Positions 23,261-26,734 of a stretch of DNA of 64,000 bases are shown piece by piece. Under the pieces are notes generated by a model. It saw only the letters and a program-made list of their open reading frames with translations. It searched no databases and was not told where the DNA came from. How positions within the stretch are numbered: the first letter of the stretch is position 1; each line of letters starts with the position of its first letter. Position numbers and translations under genes: made by a program. Source of the DNA: Longimicrobiales bacterium (GTDB lineage: Bacteria; Gemmatimonadota; Gemmatimonadetes; Longimicrobiales; Gaopeijiaceae); contig CBDBCF010000001.1 in the NCBI GenBank assembly GCA_965202985.1, positions 64,001 to 128,000 of the forward strand, given 5' to 3'.

Positions 23261-24071
23261 CTCCGAACGCGCGCCGGCCCCGCCCGCCTACCGCCCCCAA
23301 CTTCGCGACTGGCTCCGCGCGGGCGTCCGCGTGGTCGCCGTCTTGGTCTGGACCGCGGCCATCGCCGCCGGACTGGTCGTCGCACGGGCCTTCGCGCGGT
23401 TGCGCCGCAACGGGGACGCCGCGGTCCGCGCCGCCATCCGCAGGCGCGCCATGGCGTTCTGGGGCCGCCGCGTGCTCGCCGTCTTGGGCGTTCGCAGGGC
23501 GACGAGCGGCAAGCCGCCGCCGCCGGGCGCCCTGGTCGTGTCCAACCACCTGAGCTACCTGGACATTCCGGTTCTGGCTTCGGTGCTGCCGGTCGTCTTC
23601 GTGTCCAAGGCCGAAGTGCGACGATGGCCGTTCTGGGGCTGGATGGCCACGATCGCCGGCACCGTCTTCATCGACCGGACCCGAAAGCGCGACGCATTGC
23701 GGGTCCTGGAAGGCATTGAGCGGGCGATCGGACGCGGAGACGGCGTGGTGGTCTTCCCAGAGGCCACCAGCACCGACGGCGCCACGATCTTGCCCTTCAA
23801 GGCGTCACTGCTGGAGCTGGCGGCGGCACGCCGGGCGCCGGTGTACTGGGTCACGCTGTCGTACCGCGCAACCGAAGTCGGCGTCCGCGCCCGGGACCGC
23901 GTGTGCTGGTGGGGCGACATGACGTTCGGGCAACACTTGGCGGGCCTGTGCGCGCTGCGGGGCGTGGACTGCCGGATCCGGTTCGGCGACGGCCCGATCC
24001 GCAGCGCCGACCGCAAGGCTCTGGCCTACGACCTGCGACAGGCCATGCTTCGCGAGTACGAGCCAGTGTAG
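23235..24071 (+). CDS. PlsC-family acyltransferase, OlsA-like (lyso-ornithine-lipid O-acyltransferase)
   Basis: SNHLSYLD (HxxxxD), FVSKAEV, FIDR, VFPEATS, ILPFK, VCWWGDM; directly follows olsB. Confidence 0.85.
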   Translation: MSTTPSSADSERAPAPPAYRPQLRDWLRAGVRVVAVLVWTAAIAAGLVVARAFARLRRNGDAAVRAAIRRRAMAFWGRRVLAVLGVRRATSGKPPPPGALVVSNHLSYLDIPVLASVLPVVFVSKAEVRRWPFWGWMATIAGTVFIDRTRKRDALRVLEGIERAIGRGDGVVVFPEATSTDGATILPFKASLLELAAARRAPVYWVTLSYRATEVGVRARDRVCWWGDMTFGQHLAGLCALRGVDCRIRFGDGPIRSADRKALAYDLRQAMLREYEPV

Positions 24072-26734
24072 TGAACAAACGTTTCCGCTGGCCCCGCAAG
24101 GCCGTCGTCCTTCTCGCCTACCTCGTGCTTCTGGGCGCGTCGCATGTCGTCCGGGCCTTCCGCTCGCCCCCCGCTCCCGCGCCGGACCAGAAGGTGCAGC
24201 ATGTGGAGGGCGCCCCCCCGCCGCCCCGAGGACCCGTCGCCATCGCCTACCGGGAGTGGGCGCCCGACGTCCCCTCGAATGGCGCCGGCGCACCGTCCGC
24301 CGGCGCCGAGGAACCTGCCGGCCACCCGTTGCCCGTGCTGCTGCTCCACGGAAGCCCGGGCAGCGGGTCGTCGTTCCGGCGTTTGGCCCCCGGATTCGGC
24401 GCGCACCGTCGCACGCTGGCGCCGGACCTGCCCGGATTCGGCGCTTCCACGGCCCGAGTTCCCGACTACTCGATCCGCGCCCACGCGGCGATGGCGCTCC
24501 AGCTCCTGGACTCGCTGCGAGTGGGACGGGTCCACGTGGTGGGATTCTCGCTGGGCGGGGGCGTGGCGCTGGAGATGCACCGCACCCGTCCAGACCGGCT
24601 GGCGTCGATCACCCTGCTGTCTGCGACGGGCGTCCAGGAGCACGAACTCCTGGGAGACTACCACCTGAACCGCGCGCTGCACGGCTTGCAGCTGTTCGCG
24701 TTTTGGGTCGTGGGCGAGCTGGTCCCCCACTTCGGCCTGGCCGACGGCGCCTTCCTGGGTCGAGCCTACGCCCGGAACTTCTACGACACCGACCAGCGAC
24801 CCTTGCGCACGGTCCTGCAGGAGTACGCCGGCCCCATGCTGGTGGTTCACGGGCGCCGGGACCCGCTCGTGCCGGTGGCGGCAGCGATCGAGCACCACCG
24901 CATCGTGCCCCAGGCCGAGCTCGCGCTGCTGGACGGCGATCACTTCCTGACGTTCGCTCGCCCGGAGGCGGTCGCCCCCGTCGTCCTGGACTTCGTCGCC
25001 CGGGCGGAAGCGGGCCGGACCGCCGTCCGCCGCACCGCCCTGCCGGAGCGGATTCGCGCGGCGGCGGTCCCCTTCGACGCCGCAACCGTCCCGCCGGCCA
25101 CGGGCTTCGCTCTCTGGGTGACCCTCGTCCTGATCGCAGCCGCCACCCTGGTCTCGGAAGACTTGGCCTGCATCGGGACCGGGCTCCTGGTGGTCCGCGG
25201 CGCTCTGCCCTGGCTTCCGGGCGCGGCGGCCTGCATGGCGGGGATCTTCGCGGGCGACCTGCTGCTGTACGCTGCGGGGCGACTCGTGGGGCGGCCCGTC
25301 GCGAGGGTCGCACCCGTCCGGTGGCTCGTGGGCTCCGACGACCTGGAACGCGCCTGTCGCTGGTTCGCCCGGCGAAGCGCAGCCCTGGTCCTGTGGGGCC
25401 GGTTCGTGCCGGGCACCCGCCTTCCGACGTACGTGGCGGCCGGCGTGGTGCGCCTTCCCTTCCCCGTCTTCGCGCTCTGGGCCCTGATCGCCGCCGCCGC
25501 GTGGACGCCCCTGCTGGTCGGCGCCACCACGCTCTTCGGCCAAGCGACCACCGCCTGGACCGGCGTCGAGCCGGAGCGCATCCTTCCCTGGCTGGCAGTT
25601 CTCGGCCTCGCCGTCCTGGTGGGCCTTCGCGTCGCGTTGCCCCTGGCCACGGCCGCGGGACGCCGACGGTTCGAGCGTCGGTGGGACCGCCTGCGCCGGT
25701 GGGAGTTTTGGCCCCCCTGGCTCTTCTACCTGCCGGTGGCGGCGTGGTTCTGCTGCGTGGCCCTCCGCTACCGCTCGCTGACGCTCTTCGCGGCGGCCAA
25801 CCCGGGAATCGAGCCCTTCGGCGGATTGGTCGGCGAATCCAAGTTCGGCATCCTCTCGGCCCTGGAACGCGGTCGGGTCGCGTCCGGGGCCGCCGCCGAC
25901 CGGGTCGCAAAGACTCGACTTCTGTGCCCCGCCCAGCTCGAACCCGAACGACTCCACGCCGCCGCGCTGGAGGCGGTCGCCCATGTGGGCGGGTTCCCCG
26001 TCGTCGTGAAGCCCGACGTGGGCGAGCGGGGCACGGGCGTTTCCGTGGTTCGGGACGCCGAAGGGCTAGCGAACCGGCTGGCCGACGCCAAGCACCCGCT
26101 GATCGTGCAAGAGTACGTGCCCGGCCGCGAGCTGGGGGTCTTCTACCACCGCATGCCCGGCTGGGAGCGCGGGCGAATCTTCGGAATCACCGAAAAGCGC
26201 CAACCCGTGGTCGTGGGCGACAGCCGCCGTTCCGTTGCCCGCCTGATCTTCGCGGACCGTCGGCTGCGGCACCAAGCCAAGGTGTTCGCCCGCCAGCTGG
26301 GGACGGACATGCACCGAGTCCCGGCCAAGGGCGAGCAGGTTGTCCTGCAGGAGCTGGGCAACCACTGCCTGGGCGCCGAGTTCCGCGACGGAGGGCGCAT
26401 GGAGACGCCCGCCCTGGCTCGGGCCGTGGAGGATCTGAGCCGCGGGGTCGAGGGCTTCTACTTCGGTCGCTACGACCTTCGGGGCGCGTCGTTCGGCGAC
26501 ATTCAGGCCGGGCACTTCAAGGTCGTCGAGCTGAACGGCGTCTCGTCCGAGGCCACAAACGTCTACGACCCCCGCAACTCTCTCCTCTCGGCCTACGGCA
26601 ACTTGTTCCGCCAATGGTCCCTGGCGTTTCGCACCGGCGCCGCCAACCGAACTCGCGGCGCGAAGCCGCCGGGCCTCTCGGCGGTCGCCCGAGTGCTCGT
26701 CCGGCATGCGAGGCGTCGCGTCAGTTGTTACTGA
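24071..26734 (+). CDS. Fusion of alpha/beta hydrolase, DedA/VTT membrane domain and ATP-grasp ligase
   Basis: GTG overlaps upstream TAG; HGSPG/GFSLGG/GRRDPLV/GDHF triad; SEDLAC...GDLLLY...RFVPGTRLPTYVAAG; WEFWP, KPDVGERGTGV, QEYVPG, GRYDLR, VELNG. Confidence 0.85.
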   Translation: MNKRFRWPRKAVVLLAYLVLLGASHVVRAFRSPPAPAPDQKVQHVEGAPPPPRGPVAIAYREWAPDVPSNGAGAPSAGAEEPAGHPLPVLLLHGSPGSGSSFRRLAPGFGAHRRTLAPDLPGFGASTARVPDYSIRAHAAMALQLLDSLRVGRVHVVGFSLGGGVALEMHRTRPDRLASITLLSATGVQEHELLGDYHLNRALHGLQLFAFWVVGELVPHFGLADGAFLGRAYARNFYDTDQRPLRTVLQEYAGPMLVVHGRRDPLVPVAAAIEHHRIVPQAELALLDGDHFLTFARPEAVAPVVLDFVARAEAGRTAVRRTALPERIRAAAVPFDAATVPPATGFALWVTLVLIAAATLVSEDLACIGTGLLVVRGALPWLPGAAACMAGIFAGDLLLYAAGRLVGRPVARVAPVRWLVGSDDLERACRWFARRSAALVLWGRFVPGTRLPTYVAAGVVRLPFPVFALWALIAAAAWTPLLVGATTLFGQATTAWTGVEPERILPWLAVLGLAVLVGLRVALPLATAAGRRRFERRWDRLRRWEFWPPWLFYLPVAAWFCCVALRYRSLTLFAAANPGIEPFGGLVGESKFGILSALERGRVASGAAADRVAKTRLLCPAQLEPERLHAAALEAVAHVGGFPVVVKPDVGERGTGVSVVRDAEGLANRLADAKHPLIVQEYVPGRELGVFYHRMPGWERGRIFGITEKRQPVVVGDSRRSVARLIFADRRLRHQAKVFARQLGTDMHRVPAKGEQVVLQELGNHCLGAEFRDGGRMETPALARAVEDLSRGVEGFYFGRYDLRGASFGDIQAGHFKVVELNGVSSEATNVYDPRNSLLSAYGNLFRQWSLAFRTGAANRTRGAKPPGLSAVARVLVRHARRRVSCY

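Follow-up and report, generated by a model that had tools for sequence, protein, structure and literature searches.

The window analysed here, that is, the whole stretch of 64,000 nucleotides from a Longimicrobiales bacterium (contig CBDBCF010000001.1), carries on its forward strand a gene in which an alpha/beta-hydrolase, a DedA-type membrane domain and an ATP-grasp ligase are joined in a single protein. An original prediction, made from the letters of the sequence, had placed this gene at 24071-26734 and had seen in it a ligase, a putative flippase and a hydrolase. The enclosing open reading frame (ORF) runs from 23903 to 26734 (+) as a single uninterrupted frame, the GTG at 24071 shares 1 nt with the TAG stop of an OlsA-like gene located upstream, and close homologues exhibit in alignment a common N-terminus, MNKRF. 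Overlap and shared start thus bear out 24071-26734 as the likely gene. Its third-position G+C amounts to 0.85, for a G+C of about 0.72 overall in the window. The protein comprises five parts, namely an N-terminal anchor, the alpha/beta-hydrolase, the DedA/VTT domain, a hydrophobic element with the motif WEFWP and the ATP-grasp domain:

24071..26734, + strand: whole fusion gene, 887 amino acids (alpha/beta-hydrolase, DedA, ATP-grasp)
24101..24154, + strand: N-terminal hydrophobic anchor, residues 11-28 (hydropathy and charge, 40 homologues)
24320..25006, + strand: alpha/beta-hydrolase domain, residues ~84-312 (Pfam, invariant triad)
24548-24550, 24860-24862 and 24941-24943, + strand: codons of the catalytic triad Ser160, Asp264 and His291 (invariant in 40 sequences)
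25097..25651, + strand: DedA/VTT domain, residues ~343-527 (Pfam VTT_dom, hhalign to YqjA)
25652..25768, + strand: arginine-rich juxtamembrane stretch, WEFWP and uncharged proline-containing helix of ~20 residues, residues 528-566 (invariant W544/E545/W547/P548)
25769..26650, + strand: ATP-grasp ligase domain, residues ~567-860 (family-level profile matches, invariant motifs)

All the motifs quoted by the original prediction are found in the translation, i.e., GFSLGG (Ser160), RRDP (Asp264), GDHF (His291) and WEFWP (544-548), and the ligase part further harbors VVKPDVGERGTG (Lys647) and ELN (Glu820/Asn822). Conservation was assessed in an alignment of 40 homologues presenting 46-83% identity. 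Residues S160, D264, H291, E363, D364, R444, R450, W544, E545, W547 and P548 are invariant in this alignment, as are K647, G651, R653, G654, Q680, E687, R800, D802, E820 and N822 in the ligase part.

The hydrolase domain matches Pfam Abhydrolase_1 from residue 88 to about 310 (E 3.8e-28, 99.2 bits for a cut-off of 25.8) as well as Abhydrolase_6 (62.5 bits for a cut-off of 26.3). The G-x-S-x-G elbow, the acid and the histidine follow each other in canonical order and are accompanied by an HG oxyanion motif (HGSPG, residues 93-97); Ser160, Asp264, His291 and H93-G94 are invariant in the 40 sequences, and the intact Ser-Asp-His hydrolase of the original prediction stands. Among solved structures, it is closest to MCP hydrolases and esterases of a generic kind (best E 7e-14), and no VirJ-type hydrolase is present among the 13 Pfam families matched at E <= 0.1 or the 42 PDB matches at E <= 1e-8. 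At the N-terminus of the fusion, a tail rich in lysine and arginine precedes the hydrophobic segment formerly proposed as an anchor, an assignment with which hydropathy and charge counts in the 40 homologues agree, and we read this segment as a putative N-in signal anchor. Of 67 representatives, 53 carry a hydrophobic segment with a Kyte-Doolittle (KD) value of at least 1.6 ahead of the hydrolase, and so do 85 of 120 homologues; the forms devoid of it are for the most part truncated or barely under the KD threshold. No such segment lies ahead of the DedA match in 47 of the 64 forms composed of DedA and ligase.

The DedA/VTT domain, also named by the original prediction, scores above the Pfam cut-off for VTT_dom (E 1e-13, 52.3 bits for a cut-off of 33.9, residues 369-485). 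It is laid out as a re-entrant loop 1 carrying Glu363/Asp364, a spanning helix, an arginine-rich cytoplasmic loop, a re-entrant loop 2 bearing Arg444/Arg450 and two spanning helices. The general plan of DedA proteins is a re-entrant loop, a helix, an extramembrane region, a second re-entrant loop and a helix (bioRxiv 10.1101/2020.12.18.423352). The best DedA match in NCBIfam is UptA (NF052604; E 1.5e-10, 41.4 bits, below the equivalog cut-off of 250), and a BLASTP comparison of Escherichia coli YqjA with the DedA region of the fusion yields an E of 0.004. When aligned with hhalign, residues 325-533 of the family lie on residues 5-220 of YqjA (probability 85.5%, E 6.5e-7); YqjA A20 is paired with T339, D51 with D364, R130 with R444 and R136 with R450, V180 is put in the loop 490-503, and G217 at about 530. 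YqjA E39 falls in a 6-residue deletion of the fusion, and the invariant Glu363, which adjoins D364, may substitute for it. The resulting Asp/Arg/Arg signature is typical of a DedA subfamily for which a role in flipping undecaprenyl phosphate has been proposed (PMC10127716).

WEFWP had been taken for a linker between the DedA and ATP-grasp domains. However, it is also found at the head of stand-alone ATP-grasp homologues and therefore belongs to the ligase module; the uncharged 20-residue element FWPxWxFYxPV is flanked on either side by lysine or arginine, in stand-alone ligases as well. We read the helix as a probable monotopic tether that holds the ligase at the membrane surface, since an enzyme that uses ATP has to be cytoplasmic. 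The ligase itself exhibits the motifs GESK, Lys647, a GERGTG loop, Gln680-Glu681, Arg800/Asp802 and Glu820/Asn822. The ATP-binding lysine, the glycine-rich loop and the Mg-site Glu-x-Asn residues align with the motifs of cyanophycin synthetase, and we presume for Lys647, the glycine-rich loop, D802 and E820/N822 the roles that such motifs have in ATP-grasp enzymes.

A ligase family profile built from the window domain and 15 stand-alone relatives was searched against the PDB and matched cyanophycin synthetase 7txv/7lg5 (E 8.6e-9), the 'glutathione synthase' 7ta5 (1.7e-8), the RimK-domain protein 8fxh (6.8e-7), GshAB (1e-6) and Ddl (2.9e-6). At E <= 0.01, RimK was matched by 9 of 16 family members and ATP-grasp_3 by 7 of 16, and one relative (P0124) exceeds the RimK cut-off with 25.7 bits for 21. 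In NCBIfam the fusion presents weak matches to UptA, to a carbamoyl-phosphate-synthase-like protein and to cyanophycin synthetase. Profile matches and invariant residues confirm at the family level the ATP-grasp identity of the domain, which the original prediction had called intact. A phmmer search with the last 348 residues among 1.84 billion representatives retrieved 2697 proteins at E <= 1e-3, of which 1038 reach E <= 1e-30; the ligases form a group of their own of about 2700 representatives at the former threshold, with no characterised member among the matches seen. Public records label the stand-alone relatives 'D-alanine--D-alanine ligase', a name given automatically.

The topology of the protein was approached through homology, hydropathy and charge. 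Averaged over the family, hydropathy delineates the anchor (11-28), a block at 343-402, two helices at 463-490 and 505-527, and a weaker segment at 548-566. The mean net charge over the 40 homologues is +3.8 for the N-tail, -0.1 for the segment after the anchor, -0.2 for the segment before the DedA block, +6.0 for the central DedA loop, -0.1 for the loop 491-506 and +5.5 for the stretch following the last DedA helix. The mapped topology of YqjA is N-out/C-in, cysteine accessibility having placed A20, S52, V59 and V180 in the periplasm and V99, L117 and G217 in the cytoplasm (bioRxiv 10.1101/2021.10.18.464800). Since the alignment with YqjA extends from end to end, this map implies that a hydrolase fused at the N-terminus would lie outside and a ligase fused at the C-terminus inside. 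A variant of 715 amino acids (P0157) harbors the anchor, the hydrolase, one strong helix, the arginine-rich stretch, WEFWP and the ligase. Taken together, the homology with YqjA, the charge bias and this variant support a periplasmic hydrolase and a cytoplasmic ATP-grasp, the orientation suggested by the original prediction.

The fusion is widespread. Of the 8000 proteins scored in a full-length search, 1379 reached E <= 1e-3, and the best 120 homologues (755-1211 amino acids, mostly from different contigs) cover 84-100% of the query with 46-96% identity; only a few bear a name, either 'alpha/beta fold hydrolase' or 'carboxylesterase/DedA'. A scan of genome contigs yielded 507 relatives, with full or near-full fusions at 33 loci (L001-L033) of Gemmatimonadota, Acidobacteriota, Planctomycetota, Verrucomicrobiota, KSB1 and a Cytophagia bin. 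At least five phyla possess full-length copies, some of them in complete chromosomes (e.g., L006 and L011). In the Atlas, clusters of ~860 amino acids with hydrolase and VTT domains are present in the same phyla as well as in Balneolota, under generic names only. Among the 150 best ligase-domain representatives, whose architectures were spot-checked with Pfam, 64 are composed of DedA and ligase, 57 of hydrolase, DedA and ligase, 19 of the ligase alone, and 10 of hydrolase and ligase without recognisable DedA. The core is therefore made of DedA and ligase, the hydrolase being a frequent addition.

The domains are also encountered as separate genes, including on plasmids, where a tblastn search with the ligase domain found 29 records (Paracoccus, 8; Komagataeibacter, 6; Azospirillum, 5; Salinivibrio, 4; Vibrio, 4; Variovorax, 1; Photobacterium, 1). 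The context of the DedA-ATP-grasp and stand-alone forms was inspected in five plasmid or chromid records, four of them annotated (that of Variovorax is devoid of annotation). On plasmid 1 of Paracoccus denitrificans PD1222 (L083, 7920-10611), a bacterium that is cultured and tractable, the genes for the ATP-grasp, an alpha/beta-hydrolase and the VTT protein are adjacent. However, this hydrolase scores 63.9 bits against the hydrolase profile of the family, under the generic controls (102-112 bits); it is clustered with the other two genes, but appears to be no clear orthologue of the domain present in the fusion. The gene order in Salinivibrio is SDR, VTT, ligase, DinB and NRDE, Azospirillum encodes a DedA-ligase fusion, and at locus L021 the hydrolase and a DedA-ATP-grasp protein occupy adjacent frames. 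Split homologues thus remain clustered in Paracoccus, in Salinivibrio and at L021, a point that the original prediction had singled out for checking. Komagataeibacter xylinus plasmid pA (L081, 7926-9011) carries a lone ligase with ~37% identity, and such ligases are found on the plasmids of six Komagataeibacter records. Komagataeibacter belong to the acetic acid bacteria, from which the taurine-ornithine lipid, cerilipin, has been described; as to the enzyme making this lipid, these stand-alone ligases are only a lead, with no aminolipid gene nearby.

In the window, the fusion gene is preceded by four genes on the same strand, the ends of which overlap or abut each other and the fusion:

20164..21600, + strand: ferric-reductase-type transmembrane domain fused to a Rieske [2Fe-2S] domain, recurrent in the cluster
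21597..22310, + strand: membrane-anchored protein without family name, with a Cys-His-Cys-Cys motif, always accompanying the former gene
22037..23260, + strand: OlsB-like GNAT N-acyltransferase (Pfam Acetyltransf_5, E 4.7e-28)
23235..24071, + strand: OlsA-like PlsC-type O-acyltransferase (Pfam Acyltransferase, E 4e-24), directly upstream of the fusion

The occurrence of such neighbours was counted by tblastn (E < 1e-5) at the 33 fusion loci and at 47 control loci surrounding generic hydrolases (613 kb). OlsB-like genes are found at 23/33 fusion loci and OlsA-like genes at 21/33, for 0/47 controls each. Similarly, DinB-like genes (~170 amino acids) accompany 22/33 fusions and TANGO2/NRDE-like genes (~250 amino acids) 20/33, again for 0/47 controls, and the ferric-reductase-Rieske gene (13/33; 1/47 controls) and the Cys-His-Cys-Cys anchored protein (~240-258 amino acids; 13/33; 0/47) are also recurrent. 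Confirmation of the neighbours with Pfam covered 60 of the 134 ORFs called in 14 loci, i.e., the larger ORFs nearest the fusion, in 11 loci. The lipid link of the original prediction is supported by the OlsB/OlsA-like genes next to the fusion.

In several cases the neighbours are themselves fused. At L027, the hydrolase, DedA, ATP-grasp and OlsB (GNAT) domains are encoded by one ORF of 1091 amino acids, which is followed by an OlsA-like gene. The protein P0044 combines PlsC, hydrolase, DedA and ATP-grasp, and P0233 combines TANGO2, hydrolase, DedA and ATP-grasp; OlsB and OlsA share one ORF at L003 and L009, and so do the DinB-like and TANGO2 proteins at L003 and L029. Single-base errors could produce some of these neighbour fusions, the adjacency being unaffected. 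In these 22 and 20 loci, respectively, the DinB-like and TANGO2/NRDE-like genes stand between the OlsA-like gene and the fusion (e.g., L004:5725-6968, L003:5637-6827 and L029:5784-6935); they follow the VTT and ATP-grasp genes in Salinivibrio, and they are also located at L084:8108-9423; neither was found by tblastn in the window or in its closest relatives, L001 and L006. A Phycisphaerales locus devoid of OlsB/OlsA (L033) encodes a GH3 (OlsH-like) gene at 3710-5374, upstream of the DinB-like, TANGO2-like and fusion genes; this is the only GH3/OlsH-like gene among the 33 loci, and none is present in the window.

The OlsB-like ORF of the window begins with an N-terminal stretch of ~150 residues rich in arginine, serine and proline (22037-22480), which overlaps the end of the preceding gene. 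Its relatives align from residue ~100-170 of the ORF, and the true start probably lies near 22304 or later. On the other side of the fusion, a gene for polysaccharide export of the Wza/PEP-CTERM type (26721-29366, -) is convergent with it, the 3' ends overlapping by 14 nt, and the G+C falls from ~0.73 to ~0.62 across 26-30 kb of the window.

We propose, with a probability of about 0.45, that the fusion is an inner-membrane enzyme that amidates the head group of an aminolipid supplied by its two upstream neighbours, flips this lipid and remodels it on the outer side. An acyloxyacyl amino lipid would first be assembled on the inner leaflet by the OlsB-like and OlsA-like enzymes. The ATP-grasp domain would phosphorylate a carboxylate, for which the free alpha-carboxylate of the amino-acid head group is the likeliest candidate, and would then join this carboxylate to the amine of an amino acid or of a taurine-like compound, leading to an amide-extended head group. 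The DedA domain, with its Asp/Arg/Arg signature of the YqjA/UptA type, would shift the lipid to the outer leaflet, where the periplasmic serine hydrolase could cleave or transacylate an ester or amide bond of the lipid for turnover or remodelling. Indeed, CphA1, RimK and GshB phosphorylate a terminal carboxylate before adding an amino acid, and the aminolipid made by OlsB and OlsA bears a free carboxylate; as the solved relatives of the ligase extend a terminal carboxylate and this lipid possesses one, head-group amidation is the simplest model.

The transfer of taurine to ornithine lipid is a type of reaction known since the 1970s. This transfer to the carboxyl group is ATP-dependent and its gene is unknown according to a 2026 review, which also reports that ornithine lipids are enriched in the outer membrane, and the accessible text of which has no word beginning with 'flipp' or 'transport' (PMC12971839). 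In a bolder and doubtful version of our proposal, the fusion would represent the missing enzyme class for the ATP-dependent amide extension of aminolipid head groups, and its polypeptide would contain the first flippase dedicated to aminolipids, together with a periplasmic hydrolase for remodelling. As cyanophycin synthetase and RimK add residues repeatedly, the ligase might in this version even build lipid-anchored oligo-amino-acid head groups.

Several known systems share one feature or another with this design. MprF/LpiA, an aminoacyl-phosphatidylglycerol synthase-flippase, had been invoked by the original prediction, together with AcvB/AtvA, as an analogue of the fusion. By analogy, MprF/LpiA with AcvB/VirJ/AtvA would follow the same logic, i.e., a cytoplasmic head-group enzyme, a membrane domain moving the lipid and an outward serine hydrolase, encoded together with them, that regulates how much of the lipid is present, and an lpiA-acvB operon has been described (PMC13197417). 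This likeness is one of logic and not of kinship, as a Pfam scan (E <= 0.1) provided no match of the fusion protein to MprF/LpiA or VirJ. The fusion differs from MprF/AcvB by the acyl-phosphate chemistry of the ATP-grasp in place of a transfer from aminoacyl-tRNA, by a DedA transporter and by the gathering of all parts in one polypeptide, and its likely lipid is an aminolipid of the OlsB/OlsA type instead of phosphatidylglycerol. As a whole, the observation at the basis of the original prediction is confirmed, and its interpretation is upheld in part, for the topology, the fusion, the clustering of split forms and the lipid context.

The neighbours of the fusion belong to the OlsB and OlsA families of the ornithine-lipid pathway. 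To our knowledge, however, the enzymes known to modify ornithine lipids (OlsC, D, E and G) include no ATP-grasp, no DedA protein and no alpha/beta-hydrolase resembling the present one. The ATP-dependent amidation of the carboxyl group of ornithine lipid (PMC12971839), which with taurine leads to cerilipin, is the kind of reaction that an ATP-grasp located beside olsBA could perform. In planctomycetes, the alpha/beta-hydrolase OlsI takes part in aminolipid synthesis together with OlsH, but as a separate O-acyltransferase protein (PMC12493201); the window has OlsB/OlsA and no GH3 gene, whereas L033 pairs a GH3/OlsH-like gene with the fusion. With YqjA, YghB and UptA the fusion shares the VTT domain. 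Of the four functionally essential residues of YqjA (E39, D51, R130 and R136), which sit at the tips of the two re-entrant loops, the end-to-end alignment pairs the last three with Asp/Arg/Arg, the position of E39 being deleted. The DedA fusion partners surveyed in the accessible part of PMC10127716 comprise PAP2, rhodanese and pyridine-nucleotide-disulfide oxidoreductase, and neither ATP-grasp nor alpha/beta-hydrolase. The ligase has the ATP-binding lysine, the glycine-rich loop and the Glu-x-Asn of the cyanophycin synthetase G domain, RimK, GshAB and Ddl, but the N-terminal substrate domain usual in ATP-grasps is replaced by a hydrophobic, proline-containing membrane element. The families of the parts and an analogue of the logic are thus known; the chemistry, the design in one polypeptide and the aminolipid context appear new. 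Literature searches naming the family, the pairings of its domains or the families of its neighbours found no published account of the family or of the DedA-ATP-grasp pairing.

A number of points weigh against the proposed amidation and export of an aminolipid. The OlsB-like and OlsA-like proteins of the window remain far under the equivalog cut-offs of NCBIfam (125.4 bits for 320 with OlsB; 140.1 bits for 300 with the lyso-ornithine-lipid O-acyltransferase OlsA), so that their assignment holds at the family level only, through Pfam. No OlsB-like gene was found beside the fusion at 10 of the 33 loci, two of which are cut at a contig end (L014 is without upstream flank and L017 is cut upstream), and no OlsA-like gene at 12 of the 33. 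Moreover, OlsB/OlsA are annotated within 7-8 kb in none of the four contexts of Komagataeibacter, Azospirillum, Paracoccus and Salinivibrio; the core module is wider than its link with OlsBA. The ATP-grasp part of the window protein stays below the Pfam cut-offs, at 17-18.9 bits for 23.2 with ATP-grasp_3 and 15-16.9 for 21 with RimK, in matches sitting around residues 630-690, and the monotopic placement of the WEFWP helix is a deduction. As for the hydrolase, all its relatives are generic, and its presence changes 31 times on the ligase tree (FastTree, 151 tips; mean of 50.0 and standard deviation of 3.4 after shuffling), a count of gains and losses inflated by truncated metagenomic ORFs; the hydrolase thus appears clustered on the tree, but as a labile accessory that is often gained or lost. 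Finally, OlsI, an alpha/beta-hydrolase, acts as an acyltransferase in ornithine-lipid synthesis (PMC12493201), and the Asp/Arg/Arg signature of the DedA domain is that of a subfamily of proposed undecaprenyl-phosphate flippases (PMC10127716).

Other explanations have been considered. The arrangement could be the same with a ligase acting upstream of or in parallel to OlsB, by activating a free fatty acid as acyl-phosphate and converting it into an N-acyl amino acid or by aminoacylating a lipid amine, and with an OlsI-like hydrolase domain working as an O-acyltransferase or transacylase. ATP-grasp enzymes are indeed able to condense fatty acids and amino acids via an acyl-phosphate (PMC11631085), OlsI performs the O-acylation of ornithine lipid from an acyl donor that is unknown (PMC12493201), and several contexts would suit such activities, namely L033 with its GH3 (OlsH-like) gene and without OlsB/OlsA next to the fusion, four loci with an OlsB-like but no OlsA-like gene (L008, L011, L012 and L015), and the proteobacterial modules without OlsBA neighbours. 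However, the OlsB-like and OlsA-like genes of the window would make these activities redundant, a periplasmic acyltransferase would be deprived of an acyl-ACP or acyl-CoA donor, and the nearest solved ligases extend peptide-like carboxylates rather than fatty acids, which makes this explanation unlikely. We consider as rather improbable that the substrate is a polyprenyl-phosphate-linked or other envelope precursor, with a DedA domain flipping undecaprenyl phosphate or a derivative, a ligase adding an amino acid to a carboxylate of the precursor and a hydrolase acting as a periplasmic esterase. The residues of the proposed undecaprenyl-phosphate subfamily (PMC10127716) and UptA as best NCBIfam DedA match would fit it, but the UptA score is 41 for a cut-off of 250; Ddl is among the PDB matches and stand-alone relatives bear the name of D-alanine--D-alanine ligase, a name that is however automatic; and the polysaccharide-export gene downstream runs convergently, in DNA of lower G+C. 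Synteny and gene fusions associate the family with OlsB/OlsA-like acyltransferases, and not with cell-wall or glycan genes.

It is also conceivable, though very improbable, that a core composed of DedA, ATP-grasp, DinB-like and NRDE/TANGO2-like proteins makes or exports a small soluble metabolite, such as a thiol-type compound or a dipeptide, the link with OlsBA being secondary. The four-gene core exists in Salinivibrio without OlsBA, DinB-like and NRDE-like genes are as frequent at the fusion loci as reported above, the ligase resembles GshAB, and ATP-grasps are known to produce thiohistidine dipeptides in gene clusters with sulfoxide synthases that contain a DinB-like domain (PMC13674229). 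On the contrary, the window, L001 and L006 keep OlsB/OlsA and lack the DinB-like and NRDE-like genes, and the DinB-like proteins of ~170 amino acids presented no FGE-like domain in a Pfam scan of the locus ORFs. Moreover, the ligase carries its own membrane-binding element, DedA proteins are tied to lipids rather than to soluble metabolites (PMC10127716; bioRxiv 10.1101/2020.12.18.423352), and TANGO2 has been reported as an acyl-CoA-binding protein, which also points to lipids (PMC11867700). An artefact of assembly or gene calling joining separate genes, an alternative already raised by the original prediction, might have been suspected from the existence of split forms and from the fact that a single-base shift could fuse neighbours in G+C-rich DNA, of which P0044 and L027 are possible cases. 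Yet the frame is unbroken with its high third-position G+C, and an artefact is refuted by the coverage of the 120 best homologues, mostly on different contigs, by the genome-contig copies in at least five phyla, including those in the complete chromosomes L006 and L011, and by the 57 of 150 representatives that carry all three domains. The probability left over by these explanations and by our own belongs to something not considered here.

Should the fusion amidate and flip an aminolipid as we propose, this would be the first demonstrated case of an ATP-grasp enzyme acting on a membrane lipid, and the gene would become a candidate for the ATP-dependent step that amidates aminolipid head groups, as well as for the inner-membrane crossing of ornithine-type lipids en route to the outer membrane. 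DedA proteins would gain an enzymatic context on both faces of the membrane, which could help settle their cargo. If the ligase also built oligo-amino-acid head groups, it might offer a route to lipopeptide-like membrane lipids independent of the ribosome and of nonribosomal peptide synthetases in several poorly studied phyla. The family is large, and is often encountered in phyla of soils and waters, the membrane lipids of which are used as environmental markers.

Other elements of the region deserve mention. Searching Rfam over 16000-27500 produced three chance-level miRNA matches only, and no riboswitch that would name the amino acid; between 17000 and 30000, a scan detected no promoter-like site, and terminator-like sites numbered 2 for 6.6 expected. 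The ORF at 29144-30271 (-) yielded no family match. The Cys-His-Cys-Cys protein exhibits an N-terminal anchor and the invariant residues Cys148, His161, Cys164 and Cys168, in a comparison from which the rows of L015 and L001 were left out as they contain a stop codon within the coordinates. The pair that it forms with the Rieske protein points to a possible path for electrons across the membrane, toward an outward protein that binds metal, as part of this gene cluster. Further upstream, an acyl-CoA-synthetase-like gene (16300-18069, +) and a sodium:solute symporter (17838-19556, +) are encoded; the nearest models of the latter are PanF and PutP, below their cut-offs, and it is also present upstream in L006 with 75% identity. 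This symporter could import the amine or amino acid. The region is flanked by proteins that, along with the closest protein matches, are consistent with a Gemmatimonadota-like organism, namely multihaem cytochrome c/TPR proteins (11429-15474, -) and cytochrome c proteins of the cbb3 type (32337-32864, -).

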